42,754 nucleotides of DNA from Deltaproteobacteria bacterium. GTDB lineage: Bacteria; Desulfobacterota; GWC2-55-46; UBA9637. The notes under the pieces were generated by a model. It was not told the DNA's origin, searched no databases, and was given only the letters and a program-made list of their open reading frames with translations. Location: contig JACQEJ010000084.1 of the NCBI GenBank assembly GCA_016200645.1, positions 1-42,754 of the forward strand. Reading direction: 5' to 3'. Below are positions 10,862-39,002 of this stretch, piece after piece (position 1 is the stretch's first letter; the number at the start of each line of letters is the position of its first letter). A program made the position numbers and the translations under genes.

Positions 10862-11410
10862 TTGAAAGACAACCTTACATATAGGTTCCTCAAAAGATTG
10901 GCAGAAAATCTTGATATGGCCAAAACAATGAAAGAGTTTCCGGAAGTATCTGTTAAGGAGATACATTCTCTTTTTCTCAAACTTGCCGATACCTTTCGGC
11001 CGGAAGATACGGTTCATATCTATGTGGACGGGGCATCAAGGGGGAATCCGGGTGATGCCGGCATCGGCGTGGTTATCACAACTGAGGATGGGAAGATATT
11101 GAAAGCCCTGGGGAAATATATCGGCAAGACTACAAATAATGTGGCAGAATACCAGGCCCTTATTACTGCGTTAGGGGAAGCAAAGTCACTGGGGGGAACA
11201 GAGATTAAGATATTTGCAGATTCAGAGCTTATGGTTAAGCAGATAAAGGGCGAATATAAGGTGAAAAGCGCCGGTCTTTTGCCGCGTTATCAAGAGGCAA
11301 AAACTTTATTGATGAAATTCAGCAAATATGATATTATTCATATAAAGAGGGAAAAGAATGCGGAAGCAGATAGACTTGCAAATCAGGCAATAGATATGAA
11401 GGCTCGCTGA
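10862..11410 (+). CDS. rnhA: Ribonuclease HI family protein
   Basis: YVDGASRGNPG, TNNVAEYQALI, DSELMVKQ and REKNAEADRLAN motifs. Confidence 0.92.
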   Translation: MKDNLTYRFLKRLAENLDMAKTMKEFPEVSVKEIHSLFLKLADTFRPEDTVHIYVDGASRGNPGDAGIGVVITTEDGKILKALGKYIGKTTNNVAEYQALITALGEAKSLGGTEIKIFADSELMVKQIKGEYKVKSAGLLPRYQEAKTLLMKFSKYDIIHIKREKNAEADRLANQAIDMKAR

Positions 11411-11431
11411 AGCGAGATGAGATGGCCGCTG

Positions 11432-11499
11432 CCCAGCGCCACTTTCTGTTACGAAGCATGGCAGAATTATCAAGTTTCGTGCCGGAAAGTGGTGCTGGG
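11432..11499. repeat. Palindromic element (CCCAGCGCCACTTT...AAAGTGGTGCTGGG) in rnpB P3
   Basis: Termini resemble the 67-bp elements flanking tRNA-Ile2. Confidence 0.8.
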
Positions 11500-11549
11500 T
11501 GGAGGAAAGTCCGGACTCCGCAGGGCAGGGAGGTCGCTAACAGCGACCG

Positions 11550-11615
11550 CCCAGCGCCACTTTGCATTGCAAGTCTGATTATAAAATCAGATTCAGCGCG
11601 GCAAAGGGGCGCCGG
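11550..11615. repeat. Palindromic element of the same family at the rnpB P9 position
   Basis: CCCAGCGCCACTTTGC...GCAAAGGGGCGCCGG between the P8 hairpin and AGGGAAAGGGCCACAGAA. Confidence 0.75.
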
Positions 11616-11652
11616 ATAGGGAAAGGGCCACAGAAAACAAACCGCCTAAAAG

Positions 11653-11738
11653 GCAGGGGCTGGGGGCTAGGTATTAGGGGCTGGTTAAATTATTTAATGC
11701 TTTTTACCAGACTCTAGTCTCTAGTCCCTAGTCTCTGT
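11653..11738. repeat. Heptamer inverted array, family F (GGGGCTA/TAGTCYC), in rnpB P12
   Basis: GGGGCTG/GGGGCTA arm pairs with (CTAGTCT/CTAGTCC)n using G-U pairs. Confidence 0.85.
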
Positions 11739-12012
11739 ATTTTTAGGTAAGGGTGAAACGGCGGGGTAAGAGCCCACCGCCCCGATGGTGACATCGGGGG
11801 CAGGGCAACCCCCTCCCGGAGCAAGACCAAATAGGAAGGCATTGAAGGATGGCCCGTCCGCGCCTTCGGGTTGGTCGCTTGAGGCGCTGAGCAATCGGCG
11901 TCCCAGATGAATGGTCATCGCCCTTTTGGGGAACAGAATCCGGCTTACGGTCTCGCTTCAGCGATTTTTTTGTGGTTCTTTTGTATGTTAGTTGAAGAAG
12001 CTGCCTAACTAA

Positions 12013-17191: not shown

Positions 17192-17267
17192 AAATACAGG
17201 CTATGGGCAATGGGCTATAGGCTATGGGTTTTCCTATCGCCTATCGCCTATTGCCTATTGCCTGTCT
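17192..17267. repeat. Heptamer inverted array, family B (GGCTATA/GGCAATA), empty copy
   Basis: 37-bp arm identical to 19230-19266 and 24143-24179; fills the clpX-lon gap. Confidence 0.95.
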
Positions 17268-19217: not shown

Positions 19218-19229
19218 TGTGCCTCCTTA

Positions 19230-19315
19230 AAATACAGGCTATGGGCAATGGGCTATAGGCTATGGGGTTTTCTCCTATTGCCTATTGCCTATCGCCTATC
19301 GCCTATAGCCTGTTT
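19230..19315. repeat. Heptamer inverted array, family B, empty copy
   Basis: Same 37-bp arm; the other arm supplies the tig stop codon. Confidence 0.95.
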
Positions 19316-20571
19316 TTTATTATAAAATCAAAAACCTTTTCTTCCAGCATCCCTGCCATCAGGGCGGCATCAGAACCTTGCTCTACAAACTGCCTCTTCA
19401 GCTCCTCAAACCTCTGATGGCGCTCTGCAGCCATTTCTTTTATTTTAGCATCTATCTCGTTGTCTGAAACAGTTATATTCTCCTGCCTTGCCACAGCATC
19501 CAGTATCATCTCTTCCTTAACCCTCATCTCCGCTATCCCGGAGTATTTCTCTTTTAATTTCTCAGGGGTCATTTCCGCCGCATCCTCCGGCTTAACCCTT
19601 ACCTTTCTCATATCTTCCATTGCCCGGGAAACAAATGATTGCAAATAGCTTGCCACAAGGGAAGGGGGCGTATCAAATGTATTCTTTTCAATAAGGCGCT
19701 CCACTATCTCTTTTTTAAGCCGTTCCTTTTCTGCCGCCTCTTTCTGTTTTATCAGGGCTTCTCGCACCTTATCCTTCAGCTGGGCAAGGTTGTCCAGCTT
19801 CAAATCCTTTGCAAATTCGTCATCCAGGGCAGGCAAAACCCTTTCTTTTACGGCCTTGACCTTTATCTTAAAGAGCGCCTCCTTGCCTGCAAGCCCTTTA
19901 TGCTTATAGTCCTCATGGAATCTTACCTTAACCTCTTTTTCATCGCCTTTACCCGCGCCCACAAGCGCATCCTCAAGGTCAGGGACAAGGGCATTTGTGC
20001 CTATCACCACAGGATATTCAGTCGCCTTTGCATTCTCCACAGGCTTGCCGTCTGAAAATCCCTCAAAATCTATGACAACCAAATCCTTCTCCCGGGCAGG
20101 TCGCTCCACCTCGCTGAAATGGGCATTCCCCTCCCTCAAGAGTTCCATAGCCTTTTCTATCTCATCATCATTAACCGTTGCCGCCTCTTTCTTAAGTTCC
20201 ATGCCAAGATAGCCTTCCACAGTGATGTCCGGCCTCACCTCAACCGTCGCGGTATAGGAAAAGGGCTTGCCATACTCTATTCCTTCCTTCACATCTATCT
20301 TGGGTCTTGCAACCGGAGAGAGATTTTTTTCCCTGACAACCTTTGGATATGAACCCTCAATAATTTTTGAAACAACCTCTCCCAGCGCATAGTCCTTATA
20401 GCGGCTTTCCAATATCGCCTTTGGCGCCTTTCCTTTTCTGAAACCGTCAATGGAAACCGTCGCCCCGAGTTCTCTGTAAACAGCATCCATCTCCGCGTTA
20501 ATATCCTCAGGCGGAATCTCTATAATGAGCCTCTTTTTTACAGGGCTCAAATCTTCGATTGATACCTTCAT
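19303..20571 (-). CDS. tig: Trigger factor
   Basis: GFRKGKAP ribosome-binding loop, FKBP-like domain; position before clpPX. Confidence 0.96.
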   Translation of the reverse strand: MKVSIEDLSPVKKRLIIEIPPEDINAEMDAVYRELGATVSIDGFRKGKAPKAILESRYKDYALGEVVSKIIEGSYPKVVREKNLSPVARPKIDVKEGIEYGKPFSYTATVEVRPDITVEGYLGMELKKEAATVNDDEIEKAMELLREGNAHFSEVERPAREKDLVVIDFEGFSDGKPVENAKATEYPVVIGTNALVPDLEDALVGAGKGDEKEVKVRFHEDYKHKGLAGKEALFKIKVKAVKERVLPALDDEFAKDLKLDNLAQLKDKVREALIKQKEAAEKERLKKEIVERLIEKNTFDTPPSLVASYLQSFVSRAMEDMRKVRVKPEDAAEMTPEKLKEKYSGIAEMRVKEEMILDAVARQENITVSDNEIDAKIKEMAAERHQRFEELKRQFVEQGSDAALMAGMLEEKVFDFIIKNRL

Positions 20572-20585
20572 TGTACCCCCTAAAT

Positions 20586-20640
20586 AAAGTCAAAAGTCAA
20601 AAGTGAAAAGTCAGAAGTAAAAAGCAAAAACTGCAAAACT
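20586..20640. repeat. Heptamer arm, family D (AAAGTCA), downstream of the four-helix gene
   Basis: AAAGTCA AAAGTCA AAAGTGA AAAGTCA GAAGTAA AAAGCAA; inverted relative to 21044-21084. Confidence 0.9.
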
Positions 20641-20653
20641 ATTATTACTAAAG

Positions 20654-21043
20654 TCATAAGCTCTTTTCTAATCTTGAAATAAAGGATGAAAGCATAGCTC
20701 TAACTTCCTGATACCCTTTTTCTATTGCCAGATGAATAGCTCCTTCTATATAACCCAACTCAAAACTCAAAAAAAGCCAATAATCTGTTTCTGTTGCTTC
20801 CCTTCTCTCAATGGTCAAAGAGTTCTGAAAAACCTTGCCCTTGTTTCCGCCATAACCTTCTGCAATATTGCCAGGAATTGCGGTGGAAGATCTTAACAGT
20901 TGTTTCTTTATTATTCTGGCCTCTTCAGTATTCGGAAATTTACTACAAGTTTTAATGACTGCCTTTGCCAATCCATGAGCCCTTTGCCAAACTATCAAAT
21001 CTCTATAATCCCTAATTTTCTTTTGACCACTATTTTTCTCCAT
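20654..21043 (-). CDS. Four-helix-bundle protein (23S rRNA IVP / Avd-like family)
   Basis: YRDLIVWQRA...QLLRSSTAIPGNIAEG...EATETDYWL...LGYI pattern; 129 aa. Confidence 0.9.
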   Translation of the reverse strand: MEKNSGQKKIRDYRDLIVWQRAHGLAKAVIKTCSKFPNTEEARIIKKQLLRSSTAIPGNIAEGYGGNKGKVFQNSLTIERREATETDYWLFLSFELGYIEGAIHLAIEKGYQEVRAMLSSFISRLEKSL

Positions 21044-21084
21044 ACTTTTGGCTTATGACTTTTGACTTCTGACTCCTGACTGTC
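21044..21084. repeat. Heptamer arm, family D (TGACTTT/TGACTTC/TGACTCC), upstream of the four-helix gene
   Basis: Abuts the ATG; starts 6 nt after the tRNA-Leu CCA. Confidence 0.9.
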
Positions 21085-21090
21085 TTATCT

Positions 21091-21173
21091 TGGTGCGAGA
21101 GGGGGGAATCGAACCCCCATGGTTGCCCACCAGATCCTAAGTCTGGCGCGTCTGCCAGTTCCGCCACCCTCGC
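21091..21173 (-). tRNA. tRNA-Leu(TAG)
   Basis: GCGAGGGTGGCGGAACTGG...CTTAGGA...variable arm...GTTCGAT...ACCA. Confidence 0.96.
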
Positions 21174-23126: not shown

Positions 23127-24101
23127 TTACACCACCCCCGCCTTCAACAGATCATGCAGATGGATAACGCCTGCAACCTTATCCCGATTTTTCACTTCGT
23201 AAACAAAAAGGGTGGTTATGGAATAATCCTCCATTATCTTGAGCGCAGCCTCTGCCAGCGCGCCTTTCTCTATCTTTTTCGGATTGCGAGTCATCACATC
23301 CTTAACGCTTTTATTTAAAATATCATTCCCTTTTTCCAGCGCCCTTCTCAAATCGCCGTCCGTTATCACGCCGACAAGGTGTTTGTTGTTATCCACCACT
23401 GCGGTAACGCCGAGCCTTTTTGCCGTTATCTCCAGAATTGCCTGTTTCATGGATGCGGCAGCCGTGATTATCGGAATATGTTTTCCGGTGTGCATGAGTT
23501 CGTCAACCTTCAGCAGTTTTTTACCGAGACTGCCCGCGGGATGGAGCAGGGCAAAGTCCTCCTCTTTAAAACCCTTTTCCTCCAGAAGCGCAACTGCCAG
23601 CGCATCGCCCATAGCCAGCGCAGCCGTGGTTGACGCGGTCGGCGCAAGCCCGAGCGGACACGCCTCTTTTTTCACGCCGATATCCAGCGCCACATCGCCT
23701 GCGCGCGCAAGGCTCGACTTCTTATCTCCGGTCATGGCGATAAGCTTTGCGCCCATCCTCTTGATGAGCGGGATGATCCGAATAATCTCCTCGGTCTCGC
23801 CGCTGTTGGAGACAGCAATAACGATGTCGTCTTTCATCAGCATACCCAAATCGCCGTGAACCCCTTCCGCAGGATGCAGGAAAAACGCGGGTGTGCCGGT
23901 GGAGGCAAAGGTGGCCGCAATCTTTTTGCAGATAAGCCCGCTCTTGCCCATGCCGGTTATAATCACCTTGCCGGTTGAATGCAAAATCAGGTCAATGGCC
24001 CTGGAGAAATTTGCGTCAAGCCTTAGGGCAAGACGGGTTATGGCCTCGGCCTCGATTTTCAAAACACGTTTTGCGGTTTGTATGGATTGGTTGGGTTTCA
24101 T
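23127..24101 (-). CDS. kdsD: Arabinose-5-phosphate isomerase (KpsF/GutQ family)
   Basis: GMGKSG, HGDLG, SNSGET, EACPLGLAPTAST and HPAGSLG motifs plus a CBS pair. Confidence 0.95.
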   Translation of the reverse strand: MKPNQSIQTAKRVLKIEAEAITRLALRLDANFSRAIDLILHSTGKVIITGMGKSGLICKKIAATFASTGTPAFFLHPAEGVHGDLGMLMKDDIVIAVSNSGETEEIIRIIPLIKRMGAKLIAMTGDKKSSLARAGDVALDIGVKKEACPLGLAPTASTTAALAMGDALAVALLEEKGFKEEDFALLHPAGSLGKKLLKVDELMHTGKHIPIITAAASMKQAILEITAKRLGVTAVVDNNKHLVGVITDGDLRRALEKGNDILNKSVKDVMTRNPKKIEKGALAEAALKIMEDYSITTLFVYEVKNRDKVAGVIHLHDLLKAGVV

Positions 24102-24108
24102 AATAAAA

Positions 24109-24252
24109 GGCTATAGGCTATTGGCGATAGGCTATGGCCATGAAATACAGGCTATGGGCAATGGGCTATAGGCTATGGGGTTTTCCTATTTCCTATTGCC
24201 TATCGCCTATTGCCTGCTTTTTGCCTATAGCCTGCCTTTATCGCCTATTGCT
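24109..24252. repeat. Heptamer array, family B, downstream of the four-helix gene
   Basis: Contains the 37-bp arm (24143-24179), a local inverted arm and the gene's stop codon. Confidence 0.95.
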
Positions 24253-24608
24253 CCTTGTCTTACTTTAATTAGTTTTCCAATCATTCTACCTAATTCATCA
24301 CAATACGCTTCAATTTTCTCATAAACTGGTTTTTCTAAATATCCTATTTCATAAGCTATCTGAGTTTGTGTTTTTAATTCAGCAAGAGAACCTTTAGCTA
24401 TATAGAAAAAACGAATAGACTCTTTATCTGTGTCACGTTCATCGCCTTCTGCCAAATTACTGGCAATACTTACCGCACTTCGTCTAATTTGGTCTCTTAA
24501 ACCGAAATCACGGCCAAAAATCCCGTCCCCAGATACTTTATAAATAAGAACAGCAATATCCTTAGCGTTTTGCCAAACTATCAAATCTTTAAAGCCTTTT
24601 TTGCCCAT
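24225..24608 (-). CDS. Four-helix-bundle protein (23S rRNA IVP / Avd-like family)
   Basis: FKDLIVWQ...DFGLRDQIRRSAVSIASNLAEG...IAKGSLAELKTQ...GYL pattern; visibly AT-richer than kdsA and kdsD. Confidence 0.93.
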   Translation of the reverse strand: MGKKGFKDLIVWQNAKDIAVLIYKVSGDGIFGRDFGLRDQIRRSAVSIASNLAEGDERDTDKESIRFFYIAKGSLAELKTQTQIAYEIGYLEKPVYEKIEAYCDELGRMIGKLIKVRQGAIGDKGRL

Positions 24609-24611
24609 AGC

Positions 24612-27185
<2,574 letters not shown>

Positions 27186-28225: not shown

Positions 28226-29791
28226 TTAGTCTAAAAGTTTTTTGACTTTTAGACTCGCAAACTGTTTTACCACCCCTATCTTCAACACCCTTTTTGTCTC
28301 CGGCCCCACTCTGCCATACGCACCCTGCCTTACACCTGCCACCCATATAATTTCATTGCCGGAGAGGATGAGCGGGATTAAACCTCTTTTGCGCCTCGGA
28401 ATCTTCTTTTCTATAAAGAGGTCTTTTATCTTTTTATGGCCGCTCATGCCGAACGGCACAAACCGGTCGCCGGACCTAAAGTTTCGTATGAGCAGGGGCG
28501 CTTTGAGTTTATCGTAATCAAAATAAGCAACCCTTTGAGATTTTAGATTTACCCCCACACCAAAATCTTTGGTGCGGGGGTTTACGATTTCAGATTTACC
28601 CCCACACCAAAATCTTTGGTGCGGGGGTTTACGATTTTGAACTTTTGTCTTAAACTCTGCAATCCTGAGTCCGCAATCCGCAATTACTTCTGTTCTGCCG
28701 TCTATTTCTAATTCCTGCTCAAATATAATGCCTCTGTCTTTCTTCTGACTTCTGACTCCTGGCTTCTGACTTCTTTCCATTGTCACCCTGTCATACTCCC
28801 TGTAAACAGTCAGGCCATGGGGCAGGTTAATTGAAATGTTCGGCGCTTTACCGGACAGCAGTTTTAAAAAATCCTCAACATGGCAACTGTAAAATCCCGC
28901 TGATGAGCCGAGAAGCTCCTCTGCCGCCATAAAAAACATCCTGACTTTGATTGCATCATGCAGACTGTTAAGTTTTTTTACCGAAAGAGCAACGGATGTT
29001 TTTCCTTTGCCCCTTGACCCTTGACCCTTGACCTTTTGCCCGCCCTTCACGCAATTCGTGTAAGCATCTTTTGCCTGACTGCACAGATAATCTTCATCCC
29101 TCGTAAGGATGCGGGAAAGCCTGGCCATGTCGTTTTTAAAGGCCGGGTTATATCCCATCAGCGCAGGCATAAGTTTAAGCCTTATATGGTTGCGAAGATA
29201 TTTGGCGCTTTGATTTGAGCTGTCTTTTACAAACTTTAGTCTTTTAGCTTCAGCGTATTTTTCTATCTCTACTCTGGTTATATCAAGAAGCGGCCTTATG
29301 TATTTTCCCCTTACAGCCGGAATGCCGCATAAACCCCTTAAGCCGGCGCCATTTAAAAATCTCATTACCATCGTCTCGGCCTGGTCATCCCGATTATGGC
29401 CTGTGGCTATTTTCTGCGCCTTATATTTTTTTGCAGTCTCCTCAAAAAATGCGTATCTCGCCTTTCGCGCGACATCCTGAAGAGAATCCCCCCTTTTGAG
29501 AAGCTTGCGGGTATCTACCCTTTTGCAAACACACGGGACGCCGAGCCTTTTTGCAAGGCTCCTTATAAAGGCCTCATCCATGTCGGATTCTTTGCCCCTT
29601 AAAGAGTGATTGATGTGGGCTGCAATGAGGGAAATCTTATATTCCGCTGCAAGCCTTGTAAGGATATGAAGCAGTACAACCGAATCCACACCGCCGGAGA
29701 CAGCGGCCACGACAGTGTCGCCCCTTTTGAGCATCTTGAATTTTTCAATGGTGTTTTTTGCTTTGTCCAGCATAGGGTTTTCAAGTATCAT
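28226..29791 (-). CDS. tilS: tRNA(Ile)-lysidine synthetase with repeat-derived insertions
   Basis: SGGVDS PP-loop, ARKARY, GHNRDDQAET, RPLL, DSSN and RNHIR motifs; C-terminal KKIKDLFIEKKIP domain. Confidence 0.95.
   Translation of the reverse strand: MILENPMLDKAKNTIEKFKMLKRGDTVVAAVSGGVDSVVLLHILTRLAAEYKISLIAAHINHSLRGKESDMDEAFIRSLAKRLGVPCVCKRVDTRKLLKRGDSLQDVARKARYAFFEETAKKYKAQKIATGHNRDDQAETMVMRFLNGAGLRGLCGIPAVRGKYIRPLLDITRVEIEKYAEAKRLKFVKDSSNQSAKYLRNHIRLKLMPALMGYNPAFKNDMARLSRILTRDEDYLCSQAKDAYTNCVKGGQKVKGQGSRGKGKTSVALSVKKLNSLHDAIKVRMFFMAAEELLGSSAGFYSCHVEDFLKLLSGKAPNISINLPHGLTVYREYDRVTMERSQKPGVRSQKKDRGIIFEQELEIDGRTEVIADCGLRIAEFKTKVQNRKPPHQRFWCGGKSEIVNPRTKDFGVGVNLKSQRVAYFDYDKLKAPLLIRNFRSGDRFVPFGMSGHKKIKDLFIEKKIPRRKRGLIPLILSGNEIIWVAGVRQGAYGRVGPETKRVLKIGVVKQFASLKVKKLLD
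28535..28685. repeat. Composite in-frame insert in tilS: heptamer family G plus two nested 27-28 bp palindromes
   Basis: 47-bp tandem unit 28545-28591 / 28592-28637; TCCGCAA units at 28668-28684. Confidence 0.9.
28742..28774. repeat. Heptamer arm, family D, in frame in tilS
   Basis: CTTCTGA CTTCTGA CTCCTGG CTTCTGA; encodes RSQKPGVRSQK. Confidence 0.85.
29004..29041. repeat. Heptamer arm, family E (CCTTGAC), in frame in tilS
   Basis: Encodes GQKVKGQGSRGKG. Confidence 0.85.
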
Positions 29792-38120: not shown

Positions 38121-39002
38121 TATCCCTTTTTTCAGTTTCGCTGCAAACTCCCCCACTTTTTTCGCCAAATCAGGAGCGTCCTGATTCTGCTCAATCACCT
38201 TTACAATGGCGCTCCCAACAATAACAGCGTCTGCCCACTTTGACACCTCTCCGGCCTGTTCCGGGGTAGATATACCAAATCCCACGCCAACTGGCAAGGG
38301 TGTAAACCTTTTAACCTTTTTTACATATTTCTGGATTGTATCTGATAATTCTTTTCTTGCGCCGGTAATCCCTGCAACAGACACATAGTAAATAAACCCG
38401 CTTGCCTGGCTTGCCACAAGCCTCATCCTATTATCATCGCTTGTGGGGGTTAAAAGAAATATAAGATCAAGCCCATTTTTATTCGTATGTGTCTTTAATT
38501 CAGCAGCCTCCTCAGGAGGGAGGTCAACAACAAGAACCCCGTCCGCCCCTGCCTTTTTTGCATCCCTGGCAAATCTATCCGCACCGTAAACGAATATAGG
38601 GTTATAATAACCAAAAAGGACTATCGGAATCCGGCTCTTTTTCCTTACATCTCTTACCAGTTCCAGAACACCCCTTAATGTTGCGCCTTTCTTCAATGCC
38701 CTTTCAGATGCAGCCTGAATAGTCGGCCCATCCGCCATAGGGTCGGAAAAAGGTATGCCCAATTCAACAATATCTGCGCCGGATTTTTCAAGCTCAAAAA
38801 TAATCTCTTTGCTGGTTTTGAAATTGGGATCGCCTGCGGTGATAAAAGTGATAAGAGCCTTTTCACCCTTTGCTTTTAGCCTTGCAAAGGTTTCTTCTAT
38901 CCTGTTTTCTCCTTGACCCTTGATTAAAACCTTCAAGGGCAGGCTTTTGAGTTTTGACCCCCGCTTATTGCCTGCAAGGGCAGGCTTTTGAGTTATCTTC
39001 AT
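38103..39002 (-). CDS. trpA: Tryptophan synthase alpha chain with ~30-aa repeat-derived N-terminal extension
   Basis: FITAGDP, ELGIPFSDPMADGPTIQ, GITG, VGFGI and VIVGSA motifs. Confidence 0.96.
   Translation of the reverse strand: MKITQKPALAGNKRGSKLKSLPLKVLIKGQGENRIEETFARLKAKGEKALITFITAGDPNFKTSKEIIFELEKSGADIVELGIPFSDPMADGPTIQAASERALKKGATLRGVLELVRDVRKKSRIPIVLFGYYNPIFVYGADRFARDAKKAGADGVLVVDLPPEEAAELKTHTNKNGLDLIFLLTPTSDDNRMRLVASQASGFIYYVSVAGITGARKELSDTIQKYVKKVKRFTPLPVGVGFGISTPEQAGEVSKWADAVIVGSAIVKVIEQNQDAPDLAKKVGEFAAKLKKGIKLERK

Follow-up and report, generated by a model that had tools for sequence, protein, structure and literature searches.

The 42,754-nt contig considered here (JACQEJ010000084.1, hereafter the window) comes from a Deltaproteobacteria bacterium (assembly GCA_016200645.1), and in it an insert of ~540 nt (24102–24640, minus strand) separates the start codon of kdsD (24101) from the body of kdsA. 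This insert carries a small PF05635/TIGR02436 four-helix-bundle gene set between inverted arrays of tandem heptamers, and it raises the question of whether gene and repeats form one unit that arrived together, or whether an acquired gene happened to land among repeats that belong to the site. PF05635/TIGR02436 is a large family with solved structures and, to our knowledge, no assigned role outside retroelements. Comparison of the junction between relatives, and of the gene with its homologues in many phyla, makes it probable, if not yet strongly so, that 24102–24640 is a copy of a widespread cassette of stem plus open reading frame (ORF) with a lineage-specific heptamer, inserted where kdsA and kdsD ancestrally abutted. 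The best reading is that of a cassette of the intervening-sequence (IVS) type with a cognate repeat, of which the IVS of 23S rRNA would be a special case.

The insert and the junction it occupies

Like the upstream host gene kdsA (24612–25451, a DAHP_synth_1 match) and the downstream host gene kdsD (23127–24101, SIS and CBS domains), the ORF (24225–24608, 127 aa) lies on the minus strand, and in sense order the insert is made up of arm a1, the ORF, arm a2, arm a'1 and arm a'2, all on that strand. Arm a1 (24603–24640), 5' of the ORF, consists of ~4.6 units of GGCTATR, GGCAATA or GGCGATA and has AAAAACAGGC as its outer end in the sense direction. Arm a2 (24183–24251) is formed of sense-strand G-rich heptamers that overlap the 3' end of the ORF and provides the 5' half of a local hairpin; arm a'1 (24143–24179) is a complement array whose partner is either a2 locally or a1 across the ORF; and arm a'2 (24102–24140), the outermost complement array, ends 7 nt before the kdsD ATG. 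A reading made earlier from the sequence alone (the sequence-only reading) had described inverted arms of 32 nt; these were recovered as a core with two mismatches, which an inverted-repeat search extends to 37 nt at 92% complementarity (24143–24179 with 24604–24640). An outer pair (24102–24145 with 24597–24640) spans 44 nt at 82% complementarity, and both pairs are composed of GGCTATR, GGCAATA and GGCGATA heptamers.

The repeats also supply coding signals, as had been proposed, and the codons concerned can be read inside the units. The kdsA stop (24612–24614), the ORF ATG (24606–24608), which comes three bases past that stop, and the ORF stop (24225–24227) all lie within repeat units, as do the last eight codons of the ORF; the final kdsA residues QAMGNRR and the stop that follows are provided by arm a1, which is also seen against the empty site of the related genome G001. 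In the minimum-energy RNA fold of the insert, a1 pairs with a'2, enclosing the entire ORF, and a2 pairs with a'1 as the local hairpin, at an energy of −168.8 kcal/mol compared with −127 ± 5.4 in shuffled sequences (z −7.7). The local hairpin had been said to match empty copies of the repeat, and this is borne out by a solo GGCTATR-family hairpin at 19228–19319 (unstranded; arms of 39 nt, 82% complementary and 14 nt apart), whose left arm is identical to 24143–24179 over 37 nt with the same ...ATAGCCTGTTTTT end. Adjacent opposed GGCTATG and CCTATCG arrays at 17199–17263 (unstranded) are apparently a further solo copy, at which the inverted-pair search returned 0 pairs. No rRNA match was found within the window, which places the insert outside a 23S rRNA helix.

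The ORF is AT-rich, with a GC content of 0.35 compared with 0.51 in its flanks, and its product belongs to the four-helix family, as first described: it matches PF05635 with E 4.5e-34 (117.3 bits, cut-off 33.8), TIGR02436 with 116.2 bits (cut-off 24) and NF008912 with 126.9 bits (cut-off 124). PF05635 was the only family found in the protein by domain search, and it did not qualify as a Y1 (HUH) transposase; we know of no catalytic site in the PF05635 helical bundle (~120 aa). The nearest solved relative, compared by sequence only, is 2gsc_A (XCC0516; E 1.6e-14 over residues 8–101), an entry with five chains that the available part of one paper describes as a homopentamer (PMC4990558). The closest named relatives belong to Nitrospirota and Thermodesulfovibrionales metagenome-assembled genomes (MAGs), and the median isoelectric point (pI) across 102 family members is 9.0. 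With PADLOC, no defence model was matched by any of the three PF05635 paralogues of the genome, and a defence role was dropped. A PF05635-like match below the cut-off (28 bits) was noted in a 192-aa frame at G000:C80:5745–5951, and weak matches of this type recur in several relatives in frames of 200–218 aa.

The junction was compared in 18 relatives with a kdsA orthologue. kdsA and kdsD abut or overlap in six of them (G001, G002, G008, G010, G014 and G017); a heptamer-free, two-gene RelE/ParE-like cassette of ~500 nt occupies the site in G003, G006 and G009; G011, G016, G018 and G019 have 130–300 nt of non-coding DNA; in G007, which belongs to another genus, the site is filled by a PF05635 gene that differs from that of the window insert (30% identity) and has arms of the GTTAGAG type; and in G004, G012, G013 and G020 no kdsD was detected next to kdsA within the sequence retrieved, G004 having a porin gene after kdsA in its place. 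Arrays occur at the junction only together with a PF05635 gene. With six relatives empty and G007 filled by another PF05635 unit, the filled/empty polymorphism foreseen from the sequence is real, and the kdsA–kdsD junction is an insertion hot spot. The cassette of G009, G003 and G006 (loci L035, L037 and L038) is AT-rich with two small ORFs, the second of which looks RelE/ParE-like on inspection of its sequence. A contig joining 24088 to 24700 was considered as an allele of this strain and rejected, as it comes from a divergent relative with an empty site. When four DNA runs were mapped, contigs were found to break at arrays, and most joints were short-sided and derived from other repeat copies.

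Repeat flanks and repeat units across the family

For a family-wide survey, 80 loci were drawn from contigs representing one genome per species, with protein similarity as the sole criterion; the groups sampled are Clostridia, Bacteroidota, Acidobacteriota, Planctomycetota, Verrucomicrobiota, the candidate phyla radiation (CPR; Saccharibacteria, Paceibacterota and others), Fibrobacter, Gammaproteobacteria and other groups. Each ORF was given a score for the strongest inverted repeat, without gaps, that the 165 nt on one side of it form with the 165 nt on the other. An inverted score of at least 14 was reached by 47 of 74 PF05635 ORFs and by 10 of 474 control ORFs of the same loci (3 of 145 small controls), with median scores of 14.5 and 7 respectively (Mann–Whitney p 2.6e-29). 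The corresponding direct-repeat score was reached by 2/74 PF05635 ORFs and 13/474 controls, showing that the flanks are inverted and not direct. The enrichment of repeat flanks at four-helix genes over their neighbours, which the sequence-only reading had made a condition of its own survival, is therefore present, as is the polymorphism at the junction on which it equally depended; its interpretation as a whole is supported in part.

Tandem heptamers make up nearly all of the arms, with octamers at times, and the unit differs from locus to locus. Arrays stand on both sides of 36/74 PF05635 genes compared with 9/344 controls, and period-7 arrays reach a density of 1.81 per kb near the gene compared with 0.237 per kb elsewhere. 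The median arm is 25 nt long and the median array has 4.3 units; the median gap between the 5' arm and the start codon is 35 nt, and that between the stop codon and the 3' arm is 10 nt. The pattern is repeated on viral contigs, with 17/29 for PF05635 genes and 9/175 for controls, and none of the 16 strongest surveyed loci is located in rRNA. In G008 (loci L008, L030 and L147–L149), many PF05635 genes are flanked by octamer arrays, and 180 kb of this genome contain 39 period-8 arrays and 53 period-7 arrays.

The repeat unit follows the protein clade rather than the chromosomal site, which held in two clades. The closest homologues of the window protein (G007_L144, 76%; a Nitrospirota MAG, 70%; G011, 69%) all have GGCWATR arms, which end in the same AAATACAGGC...GCCTGTATTT type; the contexts involved are four and unrelated, none of these homologues is placed close to either kds gene, and no homology links their flanks. 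Compared with its homologues, the protein has a dN/dS of 0.07–0.14 and is under purifying selection; synonymous sites are saturated between homologues that have the arm unit in common. The second clade, relatives of the PF05635 protein encoded on contig C109 with AGCTCAT/AGCTGAT arms, has 74 members of 55–80% identity on metagenome contigs, of which 28 carry the exact unit, 23 a unit with a single mismatch (chiefly in the more divergent proteins) and 8 another unit, with no array detected in the other 15; the 51 cognate loci fall into 33 genomic-context clusters. The proportion of gene pairs that share a unit rises from 4.7% below 35% identity to 25.5% at 55–70% and 6/9 at 70% or above, and in G004, G007 and G008 every array-bearing paralogue has its own distinct unit. 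The proposal of a cognate repeat thus holds across sites within a clade and between paralogues within one genome.

Arrays in the genome and the explanations weighed

The Nitrospirota-like genome of the window (G000, in which the window is contig C121; 1.98 Mb in 201 contigs, 93.9% complete, GC 45.6%) has 983 period-7 tandem arrays, ~140 of which form close inverted pairs, and an array lies within 100 nt of 21% of gene ends. Because such arrays are common, the locus alone proves little and could be a coincidence. Arrays are present at both ends of all three PF05635 genes and of 122 of 1655 crude genes (7.4%), and a flank inverted-repeat score of at least 17 is attained by 19/1681 genes, among them all three PF05635 genes. 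The three genes are associated with three repeat families, GGCTATR, AAAGTCA and AGCTSAT. The second unit in the window (20583–21086, minus strand) has its PF05635 gene (20654–21043) between inverted AAAGTCA-type arms (20583–20629 and 21033–21086) and adjoins a tRNA gene (21094–21173). Gene and arms travel together, and the genome has solo hairpins, at scattered positions, of the family that makes up the arms of the kdsA–kdsD insert.

Dispersed copies correspond to the local gene beyond the flanks themselves. Among arrays more than 400 nt from a PF05635 gene, 45/150 match the unit of that gene, compared with an average of 6.4, and never more than 14, under permutation. The units beside the PF05635 genes of a genome match its own arrays exactly in 22% (G000), 16% (G004) and 32% (G008) of cases, and units from other genomes match 0–14%; matching between genomes at up to one mismatch lacked specificity and was abandoned. 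In 20-kb samples from 20 relatives, array density rises with the number of PF05635 genes (Spearman 0.72, uncorrected for phylogeny). Several PF05635 matches in relatives (for example G004:C61:31228–31525, G035:C21, G009:C14 and G024:C1) are stop-interrupted or shortened, many of them at contig ends, which suggests that copies turn over and that assemblies break at their repeats.

Other features of the window and genome touch on the arrays. The RNase P RNA gene (11409–11963) is 555 nt long compared with a 367-position model, and its P12 helix holds a heptamer hairpin of GGGGCUR units opposite CUAGUCU units with G·U pairing, which has the look of a solo repeat hairpin inserted into a structural RNA; a heptamer hairpin in P12 of RNase P RNA has also been reported for cyanobacteria. 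The 3' end of pyrG (25448–27106, on the same strand as kdsA, the ORF and kdsD) contains a CTGACTC array of 4.9 units (25460–25493) that is read as a C-terminal tail, showing that a coding sequence can take up repeat arrays. Longer tandem repeats at 28539–28637 (47 nt × 2.1) and 38913–38994 (41 nt × 2.0) each have an internal palindrome, and a 259-aa ORF at G000:C72:2886–3665 has a very long flanking inverted repeat whose score of 86 is by far the highest in the genome.

A number of observations weigh against the cassette explanation. The other 16 of the 19 top-scoring bracketed genes in the genome are ordinary genes, so that bracketing by arrays is not exclusive to PF05635, and the abundant CTTGCAA-type, ACAGTAG and AAGGGGC families have no PF05635 gene in the assembly. 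In the survey, 26 of the 74 genes fall short of the threshold for inverted and direct repeats alike and 22 have no detected array; both surveys sample subfamilies near two of the genome's proteins rather than all of PF05635, and their statistics are not corrected for phylogeny, related genomes not being independent. Comparison of the filled site with the empty one of G001 reveals no target-site duplication, and no catalytic motif is known in the protein. G006 (84% complete), in which no PF05635 gene was detected, appeared to be a natural knock-out when it looked array-free in 20 kb, and was discarded as such on finding 0.22 arrays per kb over 192 kb; since its arrays persist without a detected gene, the correlation of density with gene count is only quantitative. 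Finally, the mismatches within arms show no excess of G·U over A·C (118 compared with 150), and hence no sign of selection on a stem in the sense RNA.

The explanation that a small acquired gene landed by local coincidence among heptamer hairpins, the arms belonging to the site and not to the protein, draws on the 983 arrays and their proximity to a fifth of gene ends, on ~20 ordinary small genes (including CheY, CheW, NuoE, AroK and MoaC) that have inverted arrays of a single family on either side, and on the fact that the three PF05635 genes fall in three families that include the two most abundant of the genome. It is very improbable, given that the same architecture recurs in many phyla where arrays are otherwise sparse, that the unit follows the protein clade across sites, and that the kds junction is array-free when empty or when holding the toxin–antitoxin-like cassette; a chance passenger between local arms was indeed the initial reading, overturned by the survey and the tracking of clades. 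More improbable still, to the point of being barely credible, is a stray Avd gene of a diversity-generating retroelement. The protein does resemble Avd models, though weakly (NF033474, 28.9 bits; phrog_3206, E 5.7e-05), the first score being far under the equivalog cut-off of 80; the genome, 93.9% complete, has no RVT_1 match, and the 25 families that occur most often in 124 proteins neighbouring the surveyed loci, a count that leaves out the 14 longest neighbours, include no reverse transcriptase. The frequent Pfam families among these neighbours are housekeeping enzymes, each present in 4 of them at most, and no conserved neighbour is seen. The earlier remark that no reverse transcriptase is visible thus extends from the window to the genome. 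A RAYT as the moving enzyme was rejected in turn, the two Y1_Tnp genes of the genome having no inverted-heptamer brackets.

Two further explanations grant the arms a function. In the first, which we judge improbable, they serve only the gene's own transcript, the closing stem stabilising or processing a small mRNA within foreign operons, and the scattered arrays are unrelated products of slippage. The fold that encloses the ORF, the median distances of the 3' and 5' arms from the stop and start codons, and the analogous 23S rRNA IVS stem, which is cut by RNase III according to the available part of PMC4990558, all agree with it; the lack of a G·U excess on the sense strand does not, distant arrays share the local gene's unit far above permutations, the genome's own units match its arrays better than foreign units do, and the heptamer make-up of the stems is left unexplained. 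For the mRNA-stem component of the sequence-only reading, the test for selection on a stem in the sense RNA was likewise negative. In the second, less improbable yet still unlikely, the protein is a ring-shaped RNA or DNA binder, not mobile, that controls folding, termination or translation at hairpins of its own family in the manner of TRAP or HutP, arrays at its own gene providing autoregulation and scattered arrays a regulon. TRAP and HutP act on spaced triplets. Co-variation of protein and unit, strong purifying selection, a median of 4.3 units per array beside a pentameric solved relative, and the placement of arrays mostly in co-directional spacers (26–29%) and least in divergent ones (14%) are consistent with such a role. 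TAG is also present in 26/72 upstream units (36%, compared with 19% expected), and a stop codon is carried by 44/72 units on the sense strand and 29/72 on the antisense strand, an enrichment so modest that a stop-codon or TAG function of the units was dropped. Against it, viral contigs as well as dozens of unrelated genomic contexts carry the gene with its arms, and at one junction the two are present or absent, which is the behaviour of mobile DNA; a terminator role for the hairpins was also dropped, as no terminator-like site was found in 23900–24900 and a TTTT run follows only 25 of 142 hairpins. Regulation is compatible with mobility, and may be the actual activity of the protein.

For the cassette explanation, the following mechanism can be envisaged. 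The outer arms would pair in the operon transcript and enclose the ORF, allowing the insert to be tolerated, and the stem may be cut by RNase III, by analogy with 23S rRNA intervening sequences; such cutting would make insertion into an operon or an rRNA tolerable. The protein, putatively ring-forming and mildly basic, would recognise its own heptamer array, as suggested by the co-variation of unit and protein, the pentameric relative, arrays of four to five units and the median pI of 9.0. It may help to maintain or spread the arrays, with solo hairpins as possible non-autonomous relatives in a manner analogous to REPIN–RAYT systems, and movement might, as a guess, proceed by recombination between arrays of one family. 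A wider proposal is advanced only tentatively, and we consider it doubtful: PF05635 proteins would be the trans-acting partner of dispersed heptamers in general (STRR-like repeats, those of Xanthomonas and Beggiatoaceae, and the hairpins described here), each paralogue reading its own unit with one subunit per unit and driving the gain, upkeep or copying of arrays and of its own gene without a transposase or reverse transcriptase, and both the 23S rRNA IVSs and the RNase P hairpin would be landed copies.

Comparison with known systems

Tandem heptamers are reported to be the commonest class of short repeats in bacterial genomes and are given no known origin in the available parts of two papers (PMC4679880, PMC4692102). 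Those of Xanthomonas (GGGAATC) are intergenic and often convergent, with 70 pairs in X. campestris, and accounts of dispersed heptamers cover Xanthomonas and Nostoc (PMC4692102) as well as Beggiatoaceae (TAACTGA), Cyanobacteria and Bacteroidetes, where a patchy distribution was taken to suggest horizontal spread with no known mechanism (PMC4679880). The arrays described here are like cyanobacterial STRR, Xanthomonas GGGAATC and Beggiatoaceae TAACTGA repeats in being intergenic tandem heptamers, often in convergent pairs, and unlike them in having an associated protein, none being named in the accessible portions of those papers (PMC4679880, PMC4692102). A general link between PF05635 genes and flanking heptamers was not found in open-access papers and bioRxiv preprints, in which only the observation in Coxiella touches on it. 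If true, the link to protein lineage would give a testable explanation for an orphan protein family and for unexplained heptamers alike, and would point to a possible new type of mobile repeat-plus-gene element without a recognisable recombinase. Arrays of this kind break assemblies, and matched protein–repeat pairs would constitute a natural set of orthogonal binders and nucleic acids.

Avd binds nucleic acid, and it shares a structural superfamily with the protein described here. It is a pentameric four-helix bundle (PMC10053308, in the part available), and differs in that the protein here has no reverse transcriptase partner and scores under the equivalog cut-off. Set beside a classical insertion sequence (IS) or miniature inverted-repeat transposable element (MITE), the unit shows no direct duplication relative to the G001 site and no family in more than 4 of 124 neighbours; an enzyme may yet act in trans. 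REPIN–RAYT systems are closer in layout: a gene is flanked by its own short repeat, which is scattered in intergenic copies as hairpin-forming inverted pairs, and each gene has its own family. The resemblance is an analogy of layout and not one of membership, since RAYTs are described as Y1 transposases and PF05635 proteins are helical bundles with no known catalytic site, and since the repeats here are tandem heptamers and those of REPINs are fixed palindromes.

The nearest known system is the 23S rRNA IVS of Coxiella and Leptospira, in which a PF05635 ORF likewise lies in the loop of a stem formed from terminal inverted repeats. In Coxiella, according to the available part of PMC4990558, tandem GACAGAT heptamers precede the S23p ORF and vary in copy number between strains, RNase III cuts the terminal stem at the first heptamer, and the IVS is called a selfish element whose means of movement is not known. 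The copy between kdsA and kdsD differs in lying between protein-coding genes of an operon instead of in an rRNA helix, and in the purifying selection that acts on its protein, the Coxiella ORF being reported to be in decay. As the defining location of the 23S rRNA IVS is not that of the present insert, the latter is treated as a variant of this kind and not as a member of it; if the cassette explanation is true, the 23S rRNA IVS would itself be one landing site of a general element.

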